Of a stretch of DNA of 64,000 nucleotides, positions 40,501 through 54,300 are shown one piece after another. Within the stretch, counting starts at the first letter, position 1; the number at the start of each line of letters is the position of its first letter. The DNA comes from Raillietiella orientalis (taxonomy: Eukaryota), in NCBI GenBank assembly GCA_036172245.1, contig JAYWIR010000001.1, forward strand, positions 5,456,001 through 5,520,000, read 5' to 3'. A program made the translations under genes and the position numbers. The notes beneath the pieces were generated by a model. It worked only from the letters and a program-made list of their open reading frames with translations. It had not been told where the DNA came from and searched no databases.

Positions 40501-43500
40501 GACACACACAAAAATGCTTCTAGTATGCGATCTTTGCTGAAACGAAAATATCACATACATAGTTTGGTGATTCCTTTTGCATTCATTTTGCTGTCGAGAC
40601 TTTAAGAGAACATGTTTTCCTTTTTTTTTTTAAAAAAAAAAAAAACTTTGCTGAATATGCAAATCTTAGGTTGCCGAAATCACGAAGTACCACAAGGACG
40701 ACGAGGCATTCGAAGTTACACAAAGCACACACCAAAATTCCAGAATGATTATGCATTACTATGATGTGCTTCCAGAATCAGAGCCACAGTCATTCCAAAG
40801 AGCAAGGAATCATGGCCAATTCGATTCAGGTTCACTGAAAAAAGCTCACCCGCAAGAAAAAAAAAAAATGCTTTTCGTACTTCATAATACGGTCTACAAA
40901 GGAATTGCCTAAGAGTCACTCCTCTGGAATGAAAGTCGGCGTGTGTATCGAACCTGACTGACACGAGAGGAGGAAGACGAGAAGAAACTCCTTCTTTACA
41001 AGACCTCAAACAACACTGATGATAGCCCAGAGGCTAGTTTCTCAATCTGAACCCTCGTGTTCGGTGGCTTGCTTCCCTTTTTTGTTCTTTAGTTTGCACG
41101 CGGCATGACCAAGCAGCCACCGGCAGCCCTCAGCTCAGTTTTTGGTGCCACCCTGCGAGTTCGTGCACCACGCCCACGGATCAGAGTGCTCCACAAATGC
41201 GGACACTGCGATGCGTTCCCACTGGTGGTCATTCCAGACCAACAAGTGAAGTAGACTGCATAGAGCTTCAAGAGTGCATTCCCAAGCACTTTACAGGAGC
41301 AATGATCGTATATGCCAGAGAGGGTCAAAAGCACACACGCATTGTACAGAGTACAGAAAACAAAAACTTGATACGCAGGAAGTTACGGTACTTAAACGTA
41401 CTTAATATCCCATGGACTATACATACCTCAACGCTAGTTATTTCTTCTTTCGTGATTCTTAACCCATCCAGTATCTGCAAACTTTTGCTCTTGTGTATGC
41501 TCAATTCTCGATAATTACACAGCAGTGACACGGGGCAGGGATGGTACATGGGATCGTTAAACCACAAATCCGCTATGGATGATCTGCCGAGGAATGCAAA
41601 GAGACTCTGCAAAACACGAAATTCAAGGGGAAATGTGATCCTGATACAGAAAGGAACTGCTGAAAAGGCAAAGAAAACCTAGCCATATTTGATGCAAGAA
41701 GGTTTGCAGTCGATCTACTCTAATTTTGAAATGATTCCACTGGGATCATTCTTAAGTATTTTGTTTGCTGTTTGCTAAATAGTGGATGCTTCGATCAATG
41801 AGGTAAATCTGTCGTTATGAAAGTCAAATTCTGAATGTTGATACTCCCACGTTAGGGAAGAAGAAAAAAAGAAGGACTTCCAAGGATCTGATTGCACCTT
41901 GGCATGTAGAAGAACCTGACCTGCAAGACAAGGAAGCAGAATTCCCAGTCACGCCAACTTTGAAGAATAGCGAGATGCCACCGATTCATCTTTGCGGAGG
42001 ATCGAACTTTCTCAACTCCCGCGGGCTTTGCATTCCGACGTCGACTCGGAATTCTCTCATTCCCTGGAACGTCTACTCCGAATCACGTTTCCGGTTCCAG
42101 GACGCACCTGGCATGAGACCACGGCACTGAGGCGTCCACAAAGCTGGAGGAGTTCTTCCGCGCCCAGGCAAAGATCGGATTTCCGAATGTGCTTGCGCGC
42201 CTCTGACGACGACGCCTCCCGTCACGTCGGGATGAGAGCACGTTCTTCACAGAGGTCTCGTCCAAGAAAAAAAATTGGACATGCGCTTTTCGCAACTCGA
42301 GCCGTGACACCGTTTGCACCGACAACCGACCTAAGGCAGCTTTAAGCCGTTAGGTTAAGAGAACTGGCAAACTAGATTTTTCGTTTTGCCTGTTCTGAAG
42401 TCGGATCCGCAAAGCAATGGCCGCACGCTGGCACCAAAGACACCCACCCGTCTTTCGACCTCGACCTCATCATGTGCTTCGGGAAAGCCGTACGTGCCGT
42501 TTGCTTTTCCGACCGAGTGGACACCACAAAAAGACCCTGCAAAGCAAGCCTTCCTCAGATTCAGCTACCATGCGACTAATCCCAGGCCACTGAATACAAC
42601 CCAATAGAATCTTAGCCCACCGCATTTCTCGTTTATGGATGTGGCTGACAAGAACATGTCGGATGGCAACTCCCTGTTTGCGTCTTAGATATCGCCGTAA
42701 ACTGGAAAGTTCACAGTTACACATCCGCACAGTATCGTAATTTTTGGTTCCTATGGCGAACCCTGTCTTTTCGTTTATAGCAAGTCAGCACTTGAGGGGA
42801 AGCGTAGGCTGCTTACAAATTTTGGCGAAGGTTTCAACATTCCAAAAGTAGGCACTAGTACCGATATTCATGCGTTCACGGAAGACAGTACACTCAAAAT
42901 GAAATCCAGATACCTCCATATCGTAAACAGGATTGCCAGAAAAATTTAGCAGCCTTAAAGCGGGCAAATTGTAAAGAACATCTTGAAAGTTCAGCTTGTT
43001 ATCTGCTACGTTCAGTTCTTCCAAACTGATAAGAGAAGCTAATGGCTGCAAGAGGAGAGATAACAAAATAGAAAGAAGTGAAATTTTAAAATGCAGTTCG
43101 AGAGAAACATGAAAAGTACTGTTAAGTCTTCCAAATAATTATTAGCCAACGAGAGAACCCTTAGACTTGGAATATTGGATAATGGGATAGCATCTGATAG
43201 GCAGCAATCATTCAGGACCAATTTTCTCAAATCTCTACACATGGATAAGCAAGTGGGTCTATCAAACTTATACCAGTTTAATTAATTTAGACATGGATCT
43301 GCAACTTACTTTCAAATTACATTCAGTGATCCAGAACTCTATTAACTTTGAAGGCACATAAGTAAGATTAATGTTTTTTGGTCCAATGATCATTAAATGA
43401 GTTATACACGAAAATTTTTCGGACTCAAGCTTTATCTTTTCTTCATTAAAATCTTCAATGTCAATTCCTAATTCATCCAATGAATACAACTGATTGGCAA

Positions 43501-43528
43501 CAATTTGTAAATCATCTTTACTAATCTC
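16097..43528 (-). CDS. LRRC9: Leucine-rich repeat-containing protein 9 (LRRC9 / Chlamydomonas FAP234-like): SDS22-type LRR arrays flanking a PARP/ADP-ribosyltransferase-like domain, ~1190 aa modelled; start codon unresolved
   Basis: Phase-compatible exons: 43528-43310, 43266-43120, 43045-42914, 41606-41427, 40461-40303, 34553-34374, 33435-33302, 33252-33075, 32965-32796, 32044-31858, (possible extra exon or exons near 31200-30450, unresolved), 26294-26109, 26044-25442, 24507-24301, 24186-23876, 19585-19446, 19375-19188, 16357-16097 (TAG). LRRC9-like motifs: LIEFWITECNLK, DLWFNDPMYHPCPVSLLCNY, WGGNVSFNE...VRCCEQFV, GVCGVKIVNCTNVRNR, VVLTNSL, VILARVFVGKG, VYPEFIIGY, plus many LxxLxLxxN repeats and a C-terminal LRR cap (RIVPQLEKINSLAVTREEREEA). 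Confidence 0.85.
22119..22600. mobile_element. MITE-like element with ~70-85 bp imperfect terminal inverted repeats
   Basis: 22119-22187 (GGGAAGACAAGAGAATGACCTGCATCTTCGCTA...TCTCGCACATTCAGTTCGCCCATCGAAA) matches the reverse complement of 22517-22600 (GGGAAGACCAAGAATGACCTGCATCTTCACTA...TCTCGCACATCAGTCCGCTCATCGGAAG). No target-site duplication identified. Confidence 0.55.
22605..23405. repeat. Intronic dispersed repeat A, copy 1 (801 bp)
   Basis: Near-identical direct copy at 33485-34285 with a constant offset of 10880; I saw only two mismatches (23077, 23399). Partial copy at 29611-30019. Confidence 0.95.
23582..23830. repeat. Intronic dispersed repeat B, copy 1 (~250 bp)
   Basis: Diverged direct copy at 26440-26695 shares TTCGCxACCTACGCTGTTGCGAxCTCCAGAT, GGTGACCGGATGC, AAGCGAGCTCCCCAACGTCAC, GCTGCAAAAC and GGAGCTAAC. 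Confidence 0.9.
26440..26695. repeat. Intronic dispersed repeat B, copy 2
   Basis: Colinear with 23582-23830, with substitutions and small indels. Confidence 0.9.
29611..30019. repeat. Repeat A, internal partial copy (409 bp)
   Basis: Matches 22717-23125 at offset 6894 with about 3 substitutions. Confidence 0.95.
32655..32768 (-). repeat. ~110-nt conserved intronic element C, copy 1
   Basis: Colinear with 34241-34356: GAGCCCGTCCAACGCxTGGGCTG..TTTCGCGTTATACGAGCCCTGTGA...ACGTCAACCTCTGGCT on the gene-sense strand. Confidence 0.85.
33485..34356. repeat. Repeat A, copy 2, running into element C copy 2; fills almost the whole intron 34373-33436
   Basis: 33485-34285 equals 22605-23405; 34241-34356 is homologous to 32655-32768. 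Confidence 0.95.
35180..37480. mobile_element. ~2.3-kb segment bounded by ~180-200 bp imperfect inverted repeats (non-autonomous DNA transposon, or two inverted copies of a dispersed repeat)
   Basis: 35180-35377 (GAATGCCTTTGGCGCTCTC..AATTAGCAAAGTGCTA..AACAGAACTGAAGA..GTTGATGGTCCAA) matches the reverse complement of 37302-37480. No transposase ORF recognised inside. Confidence 0.6.
39714..39869. repeat. Perfect 156-bp AT-rich palindrome inside a larger foldback (~39645-39985)
   Basis: 39714-39780 is the exact reverse complement of 39803-39869, and the 22-nt centre is (TA)11, itself palindromic. Outer imperfect arms TACACCTACTTTTCAC / GTGAAAAAGTAGGTGTA. Confidence 0.95.
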
Positions 43529-43632
43529 CTAAATAAATAAAATAATACCAATTTACACAATGTTAGTCTTGTGACATGATCAAATCACAATAAAATTAGC
43601 TATCACAGAAATCATTTAAATAAATATCACAG

Positions 43633-46600
43633 CTAGTTTCGACTAAAATTTTTCAGTTTGATTGTTGGGGCAAAAGGCATCTGTGGCATAGGATTGACAT
43701 CATCAGTTTTCTTGGATTTGTTTCCGATGACGGATCCCAATTTATCAAGCAAAGACGGGAACTCAAGCAGAACCGCTCGAAAGTCCTACAGATGTGCAAT
43801 GGAATCAAAAAACATAATGGTAATATTTACTGTGGGGTATAATGAACCAAATAACTGTAATTTTTTCAAGCAGCTCTCATGAAGATTGCGTTTTGAAACT
43901 GAGCTTTCATCCAACTGCAAAAACTCCACAAGCACCGGAAGTACCAACTTCAATATCCATTCTTCTGAAAGAAAAGGAAATATTTTCTCTATATTTGTTT
44001 AAACTAACTGTGTTGATAAGGGCATGCAGATATGAGAGCTTCCATCGCATTAAACACTTCCAGGCAAAGCGAGACTTCCATCTGATCCGAAAAATTGCTC
44101 CTGGCTACAATGATTAAGTAGTCTAGTAGACGAGGAGCGAATTCCAGAATAAAAGGGTATGATAGTTCAGCAGGAAGTTGAAAAACAGAAGACAAAATCC
44201 GGACACAGGCAATGCGGACCACATAGGAGGGAGACTGAAAGTATAACTGCATTTTGTTTATGATTGGGTAAAGCAGATTTGGAATTGAGATAAACGGGGC
44301 ATAGAGCACAAAGACAGCAAGAGAAGCAATTTGGACTTCTTCTTCACAACTAACATTCCCACCAGAAGTATCTAAAAAATAAGGTTCAGTGAAAACAAAC
44401 ACAAGAATTAGCCTAACCTGGAACTGAGTCCAGAATCAGTGCTAAGCTACTCCTCAACAGATTGGACCAGATACCTTTGCAGGCTGGCAGCTCACGAAAT
44501 TCATGCATTACTAGAGTCTTGAGGCAATTAAGAATCGCAGTAAAAGCAGCTGTGTCAGTTAAGCCAGCTATTCCACGAAGCACACCAAGAGTAAGATAAA
44601 GCAAAACAGACAAGAGTTCCAAAGCAGCAGAAGGGGAACACAAGAACAGCAGCCTCTCTATGGCTGTAAAAGAAGCAGTCAACAAGCTATCGACTTCTGG
44701 ACTTAGTTGAATCATGGGAAATCCATGGGAAGTTATTAAAACGGATTCTAAAGAAGGAATGTATCGAACTAGTACATTGAGGCATATCTGAAACAGAGGG
44801 AAGCATTTGGGGACTCATCTTACCACTTACCTGGAGAGAGGCCAAAACTAAGGATTCTCCAGGAACTAGCAGACCTGTGCTTCCTCCTTCCCCCAAAACA
44901 TCTGCAGCATGTGGACTCCCACTGTCAGAAGTATGAGATGCACACTCTTCTAAAATGCGAGATGGCACTAATATCTGTTCCACAGAAAAGGAAAAACATT
45001 CATTTTCTAATTTTTTAATATTTTTCTCAACAGGAAACACTACATTTCCAGCTATTTTGTACCTTCTGTAGCTCGTTTTATCTGTGCTATGTAAGATACA
45101 GGACATAAAGAGAGTAAGTAGACTAACTGACTTGCACTTATACCCAGTAGAATCACACATGAAAACAAACCTTTTTTCAACTGCTTTTGAGAGTCCAGAT
45201 GCCCTTGAGCAGCTGATAAAATGCAACCCACATCTTCCAGAATTATCAGGTGTACTTGTGTACTTTCTTTTGTCAAAAGCAAGCGATGTAAAATGCTGCA
45301 AAGTTCCATAAGAATTACTTTATCTCGTCCAAGCAGTTGACATCCCGTTGATGACTGCAAGAGTATCTGAATAGCTTGAAGGCATGTCACTACGTTATCT
45401 GAAGGCTCAGCAGCTGATGAAGTGCATATAGCCTCCACACAGAGTCCTGAATGACAATAAGTTTGAATCTACATTCCTTCTAGTACCAAATATCAAGATT
45501 AAATGCTCTTCCTTGATTCCTCTTGCTTGCTCAGATACTTCATCTATGGGCTGAGTTTTTTCTGCAAGTAACTTACTATCTTGATCCTTCAACCAGAAGG
45601 TTGCAGCAAGCAAAATGGGTGGCCACGAAGATCGATAGTGAGCTCTGGCATGCTCCATTGTTTCTGCTGTGTAAAACGTACCACCAGAATGAGGTAATTG
45701 CCCAGCGAATTCTGTTGATACAAATTATTATGACGTTATTGTCACTAAACAGTTTACCTGGTGGTAAATTGAGAAGGGCGTAGTCCTTGAGGGCTAACAA
45801 CCAATACTGGGAGAGATTTGTCATTTCTGGAACTACTAACTCAAGAAGATTCTCAGGTTTGCAAACAGTAGTAGAAGCCATCTGCACATTATTTCTCATG
45901 GCTATTACGTATACCTAATTCCAAAAGTGAGAAATAAAAATGCATAAAAATGGGGTACTTAGAACACTTACTTCAGCCCATGCTTTTAAAATCGCCAATT
46001 TTTCTAAAGTAGTAGCACTTTCATTGTATACTTGAATTGGAGAGGTTGCTTTCAACTTGGACAAGGAATGCACCAGCAATGTATGGATTCTAAACATGTT
46101 ATTCATGTCTTTAGCCACTCCACTCCCTAACCACACACTGCACACTTGGCAAGCCAGTGCTGTTACATGTGCAGGTGTTTCAGGGGAGAATGCAGGTCTA
46201 AGTGCAGCTCCCACTTGGGCCTGATACTGCTCCAGCACAACATGACCAGGAAATTCTGGTTCTGGAACTTGAGCAAATTTATCAATGATGAGTTGCAACA
46301 AGCTGAGGCCCTCCAGTTGTAACTGATCTGAGTCACTGGTTGCAGCCATAAATGCCATGCGCACTAAGTCACTCAAATAACAGGTGAAATGAGTGATATC
46401 AACCACAGATAGGTCATTATTTAAATTACTCAAGGTTCTGTCTGTAGTGTTACATGTGTTAAGTAAATATTTGATACACTTAATAGCAAAGACTTTGGTT
46501 TTCCATCTGCAAGGAATAGCTGACTCTGGCGCAGCATCTTGCCTTGTATGAAACTGTTCTTCATCATTGACATCATCCTCATCTGCATCTCCGTGGTCTT

Positions 46601-49600
46601 GATTTGCATCCTTATGGCTATCTAACATGGATTCTTTTGACAATTTAATTTGCCCAAACTTGTTTGCAAGCATCCCTCACCGGAACCACTGCTAAGAACT
46701 TCTTTACACAAGCAAATCCAAAAGTCACAATGAAGGGTTCCAATAGACTGAACTAAGGACAAAAGTGCCATTCGCACATCTCTGAGGAGAATCTCATCTG
46801 TTTCAGTGTCCATTAATTCAAAGAGTCTGTTTCCGAGATTAGACTTTTTTCCAGAAAATGATAAGGGATCCGCATTGTTACTCTCCACACTATTGCTATG
46901 ACGTTTTTGTTCCAAAAATGCGTATTTCCAAACATGATTAGCCTCTTGCTGAATGAGTTGCCTTAAGCAAGAAGCTGCAGCTCTACGTAAGAGCAACTCA
47001 TCACTATGCAGATAATCCTGAATCAAAACAAGATAGAAGCTACATTAAAGAGTCCATTGCACATACACACAACTTGAGCACCATCGGTGGTAAATGGACA
47101 TGTTTCAAGGCAAACATGTGCAGCTGTTGAAGACAGCGAATTGCTTCAGCTTGAACCAGAGCATTCGGGATCTCTTGCAATACTGAACATGCACATAAAA
47201 AATTTGTACGCAGGGTGGTAACTAATGTGCTTGCTCCTAAAAATGCATTAATTTGATGAGGACAATATTAATCCTCACCTTGTAGTTCTGGTCCAATAGT
47301 TGTAATAAGGGCTGCCAAACATTTGCCAATGCCCTGCGCAACTTCTGTGTGAACGGGAGAAGTTGATAGCAGAAGCTGAAGCAGTAATGAGAGAGCTGGC
47401 TCAACATAAGGCAAAAAAACTGGGCCCTCTGTATCTGCTATCAAGGACAAAGAATAAATAGCCCAGGACTGCACGATTGGAGAATTTTTATCCTGAGCGA
47501 GAGCCAGCAAAATAGATACAGATGTACTAAAATGTTGATTGGAACCCATGCTCCCCACACAGTGATGCAACAAGCCAAGAGCCAAGGAATGCCCTGTACG
47601 AGATAAGGCACTACGAGCAGATTTAATCTTGTCAAAACAAAATTGAGCCACTTCAGCAGTAAATCGAGCATCAGCTACAACTTGAGCAAAATGACCCAAC
47701 ACATCTGCTGCTACAGCTCTCAATACTGCATTGTTATGAGATAGGGAAGGCTAAATAATAATTAGAGCTATTGTTACAAAAAGGGTAATAATTACTAGCA
47801 GCAGTTCTGTTAAAGGTTTCCGGATGTCATCCAAGGATGGCTTTATTTTCATTTCTGCAGCATTTCGGAGGCCAAATGCAAGAGCGACATATATGTTCAT
47901 TTTAAGGACTTCCTGTCTATGGGCTTTGGCCTGCTTTCAAACACAGAATTATAGCCATAAAAAAAAAAAAGTGACCTGTTTGATGCATTCCGCGAAATGG
48001 TTTAGAATCTGACAACGGTGTTTGCAGGCTATCCGCGGAAAAATTGTTCCAAACAACTGAACTGCTGTATCAATAATGACCACACCCAAAGGCAAAGTGC
48101 CTCTGTGCCACTGCTAAAATGCAATGGCAATTCTACCAATTTTCCAACATTATTCCATTTACCCCAGGTAACTGAAGATACAGCATTGCTGTGTCATGTT
48201 GCAAAGAACCAGCACCTGCAGCACAGCTTGGTTGAAGCTGGAAACAAGTTATCAAAACTATTTAACATTAGTCATTTTTTACCTGTTCTTCAATGACAGA
48301 ATAATCAGACTGGAGCAACCAAGAACCCAACATAGGCACCTGGCCCTCGTGGCATATGGTACTGAGCAATGAAGTGCTGTAATTCCCTGGATTGTCAGCA
48401 AGCGTAAGGTCGGCAATTAACAGTCTCAACAAATTGGTGTAGGAACCTATAGAACAAATGAGTGATAAGGTTCAACACCATACTGACCTTCAAACAAGTG
48501 TGCAGGTATTTTTGAGAAAACTTGATAAAGTTTCTGCTTCACAGAGATGGATGATGCTTGCGTCATCTGTTTATAATTACGGATTACAGAAGCAATGCTA
48601 ATGAATATCGTATTATGCATAAAAGTATGTTCCTGATAAAATTACCCAGTCAGCATCATTAAAGCACTTTCTACAGGGAGAAGGAGTCTACGAACTGTAT
48701 CATCAGTAGCCAAGTCAGGGCAGTTGGTCAAAAAGGCCAACATTGTTGCCAGTGCACCAGTCCTACTTTCTAAAGTTACCTAGAGAAATAATGAAATGAA
48801 AACTTCAGAGGATGATTACTAACCTGCCAAGTGAATCCATCGCCCCGGGATATTTCAGAGTCCAATTCTTTGGTGGAACAAGGAAACGCATTTCTCCACA
48901 AAAGAAGCATCCGAGGCAACAATCCTTTGACCACAGGCGATCCAAGAAGCAAGACACCTCCAATAAGCTGCCATCCACTTTGGGTCCGTACCAATGACAT
49001 GCGACTGTTTTGATTTGCACTACGTAATAGTTCCTCTGCTATATTAAAAAACATCTACAAAGTCTATAGTTGTAAAAGAAACGAAAACGTTTCAATGAGC
49101 ACCTTTCCTTTAGAGTGTGGTATGCCTAAGGGTGTATAGCGTACACCACCCAATACAGCAGATATACAATAACTGTACCCTTGTACAGCTTCTGTATTCA
49201 GTTTCAGTTTCTCTAAATTATCAGCACACCTGGACACTTGCTTAGCAAAAAATTGGCAAAGGAATGCAAAGAGCTACCTCTCCAGAAGTGCACTAATGCA
49301 TGAAGGTACAGCAACACCTATAGATCTCAGACAACTTGCGGCAACCAGACGCACAGCAAACAGAGGATGGGTAAGAGCAGACATCAGCGTCTCTAGAAAT
49401 CCTGTAATTGATACGTAATATGAGCTTGCAAAAATATATCGTACCAACTGAGTTATCAGTTAGCAAAGAAGCTGCTACCATTCCTAGAGATTCTACTAGA
49501 CATGCCAATTCTTCCATAGCACAAACTAATGCATACTGAGAAGGGCCATTTTCACCACCTACATCCTTGTTTTCTCCTAGATTATCTTTAGAGATCCTTC

Positions 49601-51338
49601 CTGATTATTTTATTTTTTTTTGCAAGGAAGCAAAACCAACCTATCTGTTTCTTAATTATTTGTATTAGACACTTGACTGCAATTAAGTGTGCCTGATCAC
49701 CCAGCATCTTTTGGAATATGGTGTGTAAAATGAATACTACACATTTTGTGGAATACAGTGTATCTAAATGAGTCATCTGTGTCTTAGAATGATTAATTAA
49801 TTCCATAACTCGCTCCACAAAATAGCAGAGATTCTTCTCAACCCAAGAATTCCCCATGTGATATGCAAAGTAGATGTAGGTCTGAGAAAGAAAATAAGAA
49901 ATGCCAATTTCATAATTACATACTTACATAAGTAATACCAATACGAACTTTTTTGTTAACAGTAGGTGAGCTTTTAATGACTTCTCCCTTCAAGAATCCA
50001 ATGCATCCTTTCACAAAGCCATTAATTAGAAAGTTCAAAGCTTCATCTAAAGAACGATTTTGCCTAGCCGAAGAGGCTAAAAATGATTTACATGCCATAC
50101 AACCTTTTAAGGAATCAGTGCACACATTCTTGTTTCCAATCATCAAAATGCAACAATGAGACACAAAAAACACATATCATGAATGTAATATACCTTGGGA
50201 TAATGGCTTGTTTGCAAAAAGTTGTGAATGGGCTAGCAAAGTTCCTAGAACATTTGCCACAATACACCTTACTTCATAGCTGCTATCTTCAAATGATCGA
50301 AGACATAAAGCAATAACACTTTCTAGTTCATTACTACATATCAGAGTAGAAACTTTAATCAGTAAAAGCAAGGCCTGCAGGATAAATTAATAAAAAACAA
50401 AAAAATCAAAACTTGTGCACCTGGGCAGCAGCACAGCGAACAATCATCACACGATCCAAAATACCATGTCGAATGGCTTTGAAAACATCCTTATGAAGCA
50501 TTGCAGCAACTGAACCCACACCAATACATATTTTTCCTAAGGTTAACATGATTTCACAGCGCATTTGTGAATCAGCATTTTTCAAACATTTGATCAAAAG
50601 ATTAATTGTTTCTTCATAGCATCGACCCATCATTCGTCCCAAATGCTCATACATAATTCCCAAAATACATATGGCAGTACTAAACAAAACAAAATTAAAG
50701 AGATTCCATACATTGAACAAATGTACCATAATCAAATTCTAAATATTTTATTAAATATTAAACGAATGAAAGAAATCCAAACTTACACTTTAGACAAAAC
50801 AGAACTTGTCTCATCTTTACTTTTCACAATATCATTTAGTTTATTTACTGTTTCAAAAAGCAGGAAAGTATCGCCGAGATTAAACAGTAACACCAGGCAT
50901 CTGGCAATAAACTGTTGGATTGCAAATCCTTGACCTTCATAAACCAATTTCATAAGCTGATCAATGAGTTTGTTTTGATTATCTTTAATATCTTTCTGAA
51001 AGTAATACATCTTAATAATGGATGACTAAGTGAATGAAATAAATTAGGTTTTTAAAGGCTGGATACAACATGGGGCCAGGGGCCAATACGCAAATAAAAT
51101 CAGAATTAGCTCATTAAGATTTACTTTACTGTTTTTGATTACAATTCCATCACAAACACTTGGACTTCATATTGATCACCATTATTGGACTATCATATCA
51201 AAATCCTACCTTTTGAATAACATGTAATATATTATTTAAAAATTTCAACCATTCAACAAGGAATACTGGTTTTTTCACATCAGGTAACTGATTGAGAACA
51301 TCCTCATTTAAAAATAAACTGTGGCTCAGTTCCAGCAT
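43633..51338 (-). CDS. HEATR5B: HEAT repeat-containing protein 5 (HEATR5A/B, yeast Laa1 family; AP-1 accessory factor)
   Basis: Start [12 protein letters not shown] at 51338. Internal motifs include [139 protein letters not shown] and [13 protein letters not shown]. Last exon 43785-43633 ends [12 protein letters not shown]. More than 20 exons, mostly with very short GT-AG introns. Confidence 0.95.
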
Positions 51339-54300
51339 GCTGACCAGTGAAATTGAAAATCACATAAACAACACTCATCTAACAACTTCCCAGAAGTTCG
51401 TGTTATTTCGATGAATTCAAAAATACACGGGAGTGCCAGTTGAATTCAAGAATTTATCTGAAGGGATGTACCCATAAATTACTTCTGTGAAAGTAAGGCA
51501 GAATGGAATATTACTTTGGAATAGCAATTTATCATTGCTTGATTGCAGTAAAAATAAAAGTCGACATTAAACAAATCCTTTGATGCCCACCTTCTTTTAT
51601 ATATGCAAATGTAAGATCTTTAAGAATACACAAATTATTTTTGCTTCAAAACATTTATTTAAAAAAACAAATTAGTTGCTTTACTATTGGAGACGAATTA
51701 CTTAAAGGACTCGTGAAAACTCTTCATTTTTGGAGTATATTTTAAAATTGCCTATTTAAAACACATAATGCAGCAAAAAGAAACTACCGCTTACAAAACA
51801 CATTTTGTAGGTGAGACTTTTTCAAAATACACTTCCCACGAGAAACTTAATGATAAGGATTTCATTCAGACTACAATATCGGTAGAGCAGCAGATCATTT
51901 TTGTGGTGTTTCCTATTTTCATATTTCCGTAAACAACCAAAACGAATAGTAAAACGTGATGATAATTTCCATCCCTCTTGAGCTTTAAAAGATGGTCTAT
52001 TTTTAGGAGATGATCGAGTGAGGAAAACCATGAGAACATTGCAGGAAACACTTAGATAAGGATAGATACAAGGAATTTAGTGTGCATTCCCCCGAATTTT
52101 CTCTGTAGAGTGTCATACAGTAGAATCAGTAAACTCCTGGCCAACACATACTGCACATGCGATTTGTTATTCCCTTTTTCCAAATCAAAAATGGCCTGAT
52201 CAGATTCACATAGGAGAGTACAAAGTTTCCATACGCGTGCAAGAATCAATGTCGGTGTAAGGAATCCACGTGAAATCAACTGATGACAACGTCAATGCCA
52301 TCGAATACTAAGCCTTGAAGCATGACGTGCATGTTCTTTTAGAAAGCATATTTTGCAATTCAAACTTCAAAATGTAGAGCTTAAGTGTGGAAACCATTAA
52401 AGGTGTAAGACGAAATGCCGAACTTTAATCAAAATTCAGAGAGAATGAAGATGGAAAAAGAAGCTTCTTGACTGTTTGTGAACAGTCAAGATGCTGAAGT
52501 GCATTCTTCTGCAAATTTAAAACGCTGCACTGATGAGTGCTCTTTTCAAGAATTTCGATACGTTTTCTCAATGAAATATTGACACTGGATTCCGTTTATC
52601 TATTTGTCTAACTACAGTCGGCATTTTGAGTAACAGATATCCATTTGACACTTCTCCTGATGTTTATTAACTCATGACGAATGGATGAAGCAGGTAGCAA
52701 GTAACCCTAAACATGTCATGGAATTTTGGTCATGCATATTAAAATATATCTCAAAAACCTTACATCAGTAAGTGTACACCCATGATATGATTGTGAGATC
52801 ATACATCACATTTCATATTCTAACAAAGCATTTTTTCCTTCACATCACTGAGTGAAAAATTTAAGCATTTTTACTGAAATATTTGTGTAACTCAAAATGT
52901 ATAGTTAAGTTCTTCTTCTGCTGATGAATATACCTTATTCCTTCATCAGTTTAGAAATTTTCATCTATTAATGATTCAATTCCAAGTGTAGTGGATTGCA
53001 GATATGTTCAAGACCAAAAAAAAAATATAGCTGAGTATTCTCATTGCAATAGATGCTCCTATAACACAGTAACAGATGAAACTGCTGGCAAAATAATATC
53101 CATTACTTCTGCAAACAGTGACAAATATGGTATGTTTAGTATAAAGTCCCCCTATAACATTACAATGCGCGAAAAGTATATAAAGAATGATCCTTACGAT
53201 GTATTGTGCGAAACGCGTACATTGCAAATTTATGTATTTGGATTGCTGGAAAACAAATGTATTTCTCTGTGGTTATGCTATTTACCACATGACACGCGGC
53301 ACCGCTGAGTACTTTGGTACAACCGAATGCAATTTCGCTTCTGAATCGTTTTTTTTTTTTTTTTTTTCCTTTAAGGAAAAAAAACTTCACGCTTCGATGT
53401 GTTCTGCTAGTGAAAAGGTAAGAAGATACTTCAGGAAAACCTTATCTGCTCGCAACACAGAAGAATGGGAATATGGAGGAATGAGGAATCCTTCCATTCC
53501 CCACGCCCTTTCCTCTTGGCTTCGTACATCACCTCCCCTATTCTTAGGCTCCACAGTTCGAGGTTGCGCTTCTACTACTCGGGATAAACCCCTATTAGCT
53601 GCGTATACATAAAGTATACAATAAGCGATGGAATGGTAAAAGAAAACACATACACACACAACTCACCAAATCGAAAAGATATTTCGTGATGATTTCCCCG
53701 TGTACCATGTGGCATTTTCGGTACAAATGAATTTCGAGGGCCATTTCTTTCATTAAGAGTTTGAAAACTGCTTTGATGATTCGGTTTAGGAAATGCCAAC
53801 AGAATTGAGCAGAAAAGAATACCTTCCCTCGAACAAATTTTAATAATGTGAGTTTACAATTTGTACTTCCATTCTGAAATTGGGAGCGATACCAAGTTGC
53901 ATTTTCTAACTTCACAATTCTTCCCAAATTTGAAGAAATATATATATATATATAATAAATTAGCATGTTAACGAGAACACTGTTCTGGTTATTTTTTGGA
54001 GTGTGATTACTTTCGAGATAATGTACATTAGACTACAAACCTCCACTTCAGTAATTAGCTTTCGGGGAAGGGATGGGGAGCATTTTGAAAAAGAGTTTCA
54101 GCATTTTTTTTTTTTCCCCCTCCGCGGCAGGCTAATACCACTATCGTTCGTATTTTCACACAACTGTGGAAAACATTGGAAATGCTTTCCTGGAGAATTC
54201 ATCCTGACCCCAGGAAAAGATGGAAACTCTGAAATGGATACTGAAGCTTCCAAAGTGGAAGCCAAAAATTGTCATTTTTCGCGAAAATTCGTGGTCCATC

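Follow-up and report, generated by a model that had tools for sequence, protein, structure and literature searches.

The HEATR5-LRRC9 junction of Raillietiella orientalis: a tight gene pair whose downstream member needs a start codon from outside its first recognisable exon

Introduction

All spliced leaders (SLs) reported for flatworms end in ATG (PMC12582326), in agreement with the statement of an original prediction for the locus treated here that flatworm leaders can supply an AUG, and 28% of the transcripts in Schistosoma carry it in the reading frame (PMC9851317); as far as the accessible text of both sources goes, an AUG-ending leader has been described for flatworms only. Among arthropods, copepods trans-splice SLs (PMC4664967) and spliced leaders have been published for the amphipod Parhyale (PMC5111886); operons resolved by trans-splicing were given as unreported for the trans-splicing crustacean groups in 2021 (PMC7986045, accessible part), and none were described for arthropods in the literature covered here (titles and abstract openings, with few subscription papers). 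The present analysis concerns a stretch of 64,000 nucleotides (nt; hereafter the window), positions 5,456,001 to 5,520,000 of contig JAYWIR010000001.1 from the Raillietiella orientalis assembly GCA_036172245.1, on which a HEATR5 gene is closely followed by an LRRC9 gene that opens at a splice acceptor. Positions are those of the window, and its features lie on the minus strand unless the plus strand is named.

The HEATR5-LRRC9 junction

The first recognisable LRRC9 exon (43310-43528; 73 codons, both ends in phase 0, donor 43309) directly follows a U-rich tract with a 3' splice acceptor (43529-43548), the TAG of which is itself a stop in the LRRC9 frame. The first ATG behind the acceptor (43513-43515) is out of frame and opens 15 codons, and the first in-frame ATG (43391-43393) is located 45 codons inside the exon, within the first leucine-rich repeat (LRR) strand according to the hidden Markov model alignment; the in-frame stop and the position of this ATG had been predicted and were confirmed. 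The 45 codons preceding ATG 43393 are open, a result that 85 of 10,000 shuffles also reached; in codon usage they surpassed 1,981 of 2,000 open shuffles. Counted from the acceptor, the conserved Trp is residue 66, which compares with residues 60-117 in 17 complete homologues; counted from ATG 43393, it is residue 21. With 45 coding-like codons ahead of an ATG that is placed inside an LRR, and with the first ATG in another frame, LRRC9 must acquire its start codon by splicing, from a source other than exon 43528-43310. A leader devoid of AUG at 43529 fits badly with these data, because the first local ATG would be read out of frame. Homology to LRRC9 proteins starts at about codon 37; a match of codons 9-27 to homologues, made by eye, failed the shuffle test and was discarded.

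The HEATR5 stop codon (TAG, 43635-43633, at the predicted coordinate) and the acceptor enclose a spacer of 104 nt (43529-43632; T50 A30 G16 C8, i.e. 48% T) that contains neither AATAAA nor ATTAAA. Indeed, AATAAA is absent across positions 43900-41400, and the earliest ATTAAA is found at 43282, inside LRRC9 intron 1. Both genes have the same orientation and a stop-to-acceptor distance that is short enough for an operon; the poly(A) signal that in the C. elegans SL2 type precedes the acceptor by about 100 nt was not present. The branch-point-like GACTAAC (43562-43568), which like the U-rich character of the spacer had been predicted correctly, is the sole minus-strand copy in the window; its core CTAAC arose in 46 of 5,000 dinucleotide shuffles of the spacer and did not occur within the last 50 nt of any of the 22 HEATR5 training introns. 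Splice sites were scored with matrices derived from 31 introns of HEATR5 and LRRC9, five doubtful HEATR5 introns having been dropped. On this scale the acceptor at 43529 is of middling quality: its score of 4.0 exceeds that of 86.5% among 565 background AGs, and 11 of the 31 true acceptors score 4.0 or less, and the donors within the spacer are weak (-0.1 to 2.5), though equally weak true donors exist in these genes. The predicted fold of the spacer is not unusual (z -0.76). An intron of 47 nt starting at 43575 was rejected as it yields an out-of-frame ATG only, and a bacterial promoter scan of the locus was irrelevant. The junction feature as such is real and no artefact.

The two genes and their host

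The HEATR5 coding region (43633-51338) was modeled with 28 exons and approximately 1,990 amino acids and showed no stops in the spliced alignment, and tblastn likewise supported it; the protein matches Pfam PF20210 (E 2e-55) and displays the PF20210 region, the length of about 2,000 residues and the conserved N- and C-termini of the HEATR5/Laa1 family. Its introns are mostly tiny (40-49 nt in 21 of 27) and 12 of the 27 are in phase 0; five of them are doubtful in detail. The last intron (43786-43830; 45 nt, phase 0, donor 4.4, acceptor 8.1), whose donor would also serve a fusion to LRRC9, is followed by the last exon (43633-43785), which encodes the conserved C-terminal motif and contains the stop. 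This motif was located at the C-terminus in 17 of 120 fetched homologues, the remainder being mostly fragments or proteins with other endings. At the 5' side, an acceptor-like CAG (51340-51359; score 3.8) is positioned 1 nt before the HEATR5 ATG, and a putative distant 5' exon (53665-53720) with upstream ATGs in phase 0 ends at donor 53666 (score 7.0); this donor, 2.3 kb upstream of the HEATR5 ATG, may mark an exon within the 5' untranslated region (UTR). No gene was recognised between 51.4 and 54 kb.

The best named HEATR5 matches were mostly from arthropods (47-60% identity) and suggest an arthropod-like host. In a FastTree phylogeny of 20 rows the window sequence forms a long branch beside two malacostracans (Shimodaira-Hasegawa support 94), a position that does not fix its placement. 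At the DNA level, the HEATR5-LRRC9 locus is single in the 210-Mb genome (491 contigs). HEATR5 has been linked to AP-1 in the accessible literature.

The whole LRRC9 gene (16097-43528; stop 16099-16097) comprises N-terminal LRRs with the LRRC9 cap, an ART-like centre (about 33.4-31.8 kb) and C-terminal LRRs in collinear order; the model (1,052 amino acids, no stops) reaches approximately 16.1 kb, with several uncertain exons in its middle part. Exons 2-4 (43266-43120, 43045-42914 and 41606-41427) are all open and all in phase 0. Exons 1-4 matched the LRRC9 N-terminal profile with 103.8 bits (E 4e-34), and the exon 4 query retrieved six matches among 1.84 billion proteins, both named clusters (two) being LRRC9. 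The ART-like part was assigned by homologue alignment and had no match in Pfam; no match was obtained with the exon at 32 kb, and structural searches (Atlas, PDB) returned generic LRR leads only. A fish LRRC9 query against the genome from which the window comes gave 21 other LRR matches and missed the present locus. The two neighbors differ in architecture: LRRC9 extends over 27 kb with 55% GC and repeated elements in its long introns, only the first two introns being compact (43 and 74 nt), whereas HEATR5 has 39% GC and tiny introns. LRRC9 presumably has a ciliary role. The ART-like domain is considered a likely pseudoenzyme, and expression of LRRC9 is reported from brain, pituitary and testis (PMC7955679); the word "cilia" occurs 0 times in the accessible text of this source and thus lends no backing to the predicted "ciliary" protein.

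Elsewhere in the window, a Brix-domain gene (Pfam PF04427) is present at about 10600-7828 on the minus strand, and a large citron/MRCK-type kinase gene with an 823-codon open frame was recognised by eye on the plus strand at 2-2714 and in the flanking locus L092, where a Pkinase match was obtained.

Other tight gene pairs in the genome

The inspection of five further junctions supported the view that the genome contains repeated cases of closely spaced genes on one strand with acceptors of this kind. In REXO4-CNBP and VHL-RUVBL1, acceptors are located 5 and 2 nt, respectively, before the downstream gene's own ATG. In PAM16-MMAA (144 nt) and PI3K-CCDC134 (167 nt), the downstream gene starts at a phase-0 acceptor without an in-frame ATG at this place, and the first local ATGs are out of frame. 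Right behind the acceptor the MMAA frame reads AAVTGKW and that of CCDC134 ALLVLLLW; judged by eye, these appear to be a mitochondrial presequence and a signal peptide, respectively, each lacking only its Met. MMAA is located at about 4.412 Mb of G000:C6 and CCDC134 at about 1.720 Mb of G000:C15. The probability that all three Met-less starts (LRRC9, MMAA, CCDC134) are in phase 0 by chance is 0.088. The fifth pair, a USP gene and REXO2 (L111:7350-9001; G000:C1, about 5.946 Mb), was the single new tight pair when 255 frames were surveyed with Pfam, 8 of them from the window and 247 out of the 296 that were listed for flanking loci; both genes share the strand, with 202 nt from stop to ATG and two acceptors in between. 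By eye, the 10-mer AGACTAACAT was seen to be common to this intergenic stretch and the HEATR5-LRRC9 spacer.

An AUG added to the acceptors would be in frame at that of VHL; where it would not be in frame, the reading would stop within four codons at 4 of 6 acceptors (null 0.23 each, p 0.03, post hoc), the exceptions being the distal acceptor of REXO2 and that of HEATR5 itself. A processed CNBP copy (L087, G000:C22:3060295 onward) is decayed (70-77% identical, with strong A-to-G/T-to-C drift); its match ends at the CNBP start codon and the genomic spacer is not carried. The copy thus fits a putative non-contiguous 5' end of the CNBP message but reveals none, its 5' flank being too decayed for a leader to be read.

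Three ATG-donor combinations were observed in the neighborhood of these pairs. In locus L105, upstream of the acceptor of PAM16 by 3,282 nt, a 24-nt exon-like stretch with an acceptor of its own ends in ATG before a strong donor; the opposite strand of this locus carries a nucleoside-diphosphate-kinase-like gene (by eye). In PI3K (L104/L108, G000:C15), the last three bases of the penultimate exon are ATG, followed by a strong phase-0 donor, while the first coding exon holds another strong ATG|GT, which is out of frame; both PI3K sites are possible cis sources for CCDC134.

Searches for spliced leaders and small RNA genes

An Rfam search of the window and two loci gave no match. The leader motifs of amphipods and copepods had 8 and 2 scattered matches in 553,723 bases, none of them convincing. 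A 15-nt promoter motif located about 60 nt upstream is common to four U5 loci (L027-L030) and was absent from this region in the U1 loci read; used as a search pattern it found 6 matches versus 8 for the control, four of the six being U5 and none SL-like. Among the other small nuclear RNA loci (L006-L025, L056-L080), all 20 of the 20 U2 loci read were without the U2 5' end, and several U1 copies had a replaced 5' end.

Discussion

Co-transcription of HEATR5 and LRRC9 in one form or another appears fairly probable. As its specific form we tentatively favor, with somewhat less than even confidence, a co-transcribed pair that is resolved by a leader supplying the LRRC9 start codon; both the trans-splicing and the start codon on the leader are what we infer. 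A promoter upstream of HEATR5 would give one HEATR5-LRRC9 precursor, and a short leader from elsewhere would be spliced to acceptor 43529 and free the LRRC9 message. This leader would end in an initiator codon, or carry one in phase 0, with Met directly preceding the first codon of the exon; the HEATR5 3' UTR would be located in or across the spacer, and a single precursor may give only one of the two messages. The coding-like codons ahead of ATG 43393, the branch motif that is rare by chance, the Met-less phase-0 junctions elsewhere in the genome, the early stops behind an added AUG, the CNBP copy without the spacer and the precedents from flatworms and crustaceans suggest such a leader. The broader proposal is that SL-resolved operons occur across the genome of this arthropod-like lineage and that the leader gives the initiator, so that genes such as LRRC9, MMAA and CCDC134 would be without an ATG of their own and could be translated only after trans-splicing; it is possible rather than probable. 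With regard to the original prediction, the outside start codon held and tight pairs proved to recur, whereas the fusion turned out to be weak and both a second local donor and a distant cis exon had been overlooked.

Several observations weigh against a start-codon-bearing leader. The searches described above yielded neither a leader sequence nor an SL RNA gene, and an Rfam search for SL1 had 0 matches among 50 scored candidates, a test that a divergent SL would escape. No significant homology was detected for the first 38-45 LRRC9 codons, whose score was reached by 66 of 500 shuffles in one test and by 800 of 1,000 in another, and the long GC-rich introns of LRRC9, unlike those of HEATR5, would suit separate regulation. 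The sample of Met-less genes is biased, MMAA and CCDC134 having been preselected for the lack of an ATG. Moreover, all three Met-less junctions do possess a local ATG with a phase-0 GT (best scores 2.1, 4.4 and -1.9), the strong ATG|GT located 3.3 kb upstream of PAM16 could be shared by MMAA, and introns at the start codon are common in eukaryotes according to the accessible part of PMC1626468. Joined to the acceptor of HEATR5 itself, a terminal AUG would begin a reading of 11 codons that runs out of frame across the HEATR5 start. However, as only 28% of the Schistosoma leader AUGs are in frame, the out-of-frame position of CNBP, RUVBL1 and HEATR5 behind a terminal AUG no longer excludes an AUG-ending leader.

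If the start codon were instead of local origin, ATG 43615 would initiate LRRC9 on a micro-exon (43589-43615), an ordinary intron of 60 or 78 nt would end at 43529 and the acceptor would not be an orphan, a possibility that we rank only slightly behind the favored reading. The ATG is in frame with two phase-0 GTs: the predicted donor 43606 (three codons, 78-nt intron, score -0.1, with 1 of 31 true donors at or below this value) is not the sole option, since donor 43588 (nine codons, MISVIANFI, 60-nt intron, score 2.1, with 2 of 31 at or below) is stronger. Both fall into the lowest tail of true donors, though weak true donors do occur here (lowest leave-one-out scores -0.2, 1.6 and 2.7) and introns of 57-78 nt are found in HEATR5 as well as in LRRC9. 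A micro-exon option arose in 2,549 of 5,000 shuffled spacers, and at equal strength in 783; because half of the shuffled spacers offer one, its presence neither supports nor excludes the option. The ATG has T at -3, and it is preceded by 17 nt behind the HEATR5 stop (18 had been predicted), so the 5' end of such a message would be within these 17 nt or inside HEATR5. It could be provided by an internal promoter in the last HEATR5 exons, by a leader at an earlier AG (e.g. 43633) or, in effect, by dicistronic re-initiation; the accessible text of PMC4528330 lists 159 dicistronic pairs in Drosophila, in which the distance from stop to start ranges from -34 to 319 nt. The AGs upstream of ATG 43615 reach scores of no more than 2.0 and -0.3, a search for strict X-box patterns gave no match, and MMAA and CCDC134 would each require a separate local answer.

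A distant first exon in cis, shared with HEATR5 or private, whose splicing to 43529 would span the entire HEATR5 body, is unlikely. The exon ending at 53667 and HEATR5 exon 1 are candidates, both in phase 0, and the former has the donor with score 7.0; LRRC9 does contain multi-kb introns, a long intron would accord with the strong branch motif, the PAM16 ATG|GT at 3.3 kb is a parallel, and unrelated genes with shared first exons are known from Drosophila (PMC4528330, accessible part). Such an exon would have to bypass up to 28 tightly spaced exons, however, and at none of 1,820 GT positions in the 40 kb upstream did the encoded sequence match the N-terminal helix of LRRC9 better than background (best score 13.7, versus 13-33.5 in homologues), nor did any of the 27 upstream ATG|GT sites listed score above 7.5. 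An ELC-containing reading at 53649, rank 2 of the 1,820, was at chance level with a donor score of 0.4 and was set aside. It is very unlikely that the functional product is an in-frame HEATR5-LRRC9 fusion, in which donor 43830 is joined to 43529 and the last HEATR5 exon is skipped. The phase of the donor and the open junction were confirmed, and the penultimate exons of PAM16 and PI3K likewise end in phase 0; yet phase 0 is the commonest in HEATR5, which renders the match uninformative, the donor has a stronger acceptor 45 nt away (8.1 versus 4.0), and the product would lack 50 C-terminal HEATR5 residues including the conserved motif. The corresponding fusion in the parallel case would bury the CCDC134 signal peptide, and at one distant arthropod HEATR5 locus (L117) no LRRC9 was found in the 3.8 kb downstream; the homologue searches extended to 2,000 residues and are uninformative on fused forms. 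Least likely of all is leaky scanning to ATG 43393, which would produce an N-terminally cut LRRC9 with vestigial upstream codons: the lack of detectable homology in the first 36 codons would agree with it, but these codons are open and coding-like, ATG 43393 splits the first LRR, and the out-of-frame ATG 43515, with A at -3, comes before it.

Comparison with known systems

If confirmed, the start-codon-bearing leader would imply an independent origin of SL-resolved operons and of a leader that supplies the AUG, and standard annotation would cut or fuse the genes concerned. The HEATR5-LRRC9 junction is of particular value as a sharp test locus because LRRC9 clearly requires a start codon from elsewhere. 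The following likenesses and differences refer to the accessible parts of the sources cited.

Of the systems without leaders, the dicistronic messages and shared first exons of Drosophila (PMC4528330) resemble the present locus in that they occur in an arthropod, involve unrelated genes with a short stop-to-start distance and require no SL; an arrangement of this type would here need ATG 43615 with its weak donor and re-initiation after a frame of 1,990 codons. Copepod and amphipod SLs (PMC4664967, PMC5111886, PMC7986045) demonstrate that some arthropods do trans-splice. The SL2-type operons of C. elegans share the U-rich stretch, about 100 nt long, before the acceptor (PMC1488885, PMC7986045). 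The spacing of about 100 nt to which the original prediction had appealed for nematodes is real, but it is measured from the poly(A) site to the acceptor, whereas the 104 nt in the present case start at the stop codon, contain the HEATR5 3' UTR and have no AATAAA. Among the nematode leader RNAs, none of the SL1 family was found; SL2 was not searched for.

Because the 104 nt include the HEATR5 3' UTR and AATAAA is missing, the layout is nearer to the operons without intercistronic DNA of Ciona intestinalis than to the C. elegans SL2 type. As in these Ciona operons and in the SL1-type operons of C. elegans, unrelated genes are arranged head to tail (PMC1488885); in 16 of 18 Ciona cases there is no AATAAA before the acceptor, and the upstream 3' UTR may reach it (PMC1488885). 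A start codon supplied by the leader, as in the reading favored here, is not described for Ciona in the accessible text of that source. It is the flatworm SL with its terminal AUG (Cheng et al. 2006, cited in PMC9851317 and PMC12582326) that corresponds in this respect: an acceptor in phase 0 that looks unpaired, a frame without Met and operon candidates with distances of up to 300 nt are common to both. The host of the HEATR5-LRRC9 pair is arthropod-like, other than in flatworms, and a terminal AUG of its leader would be a deduced feature; if it exists, the two lineages would have converged on the same arrangement.

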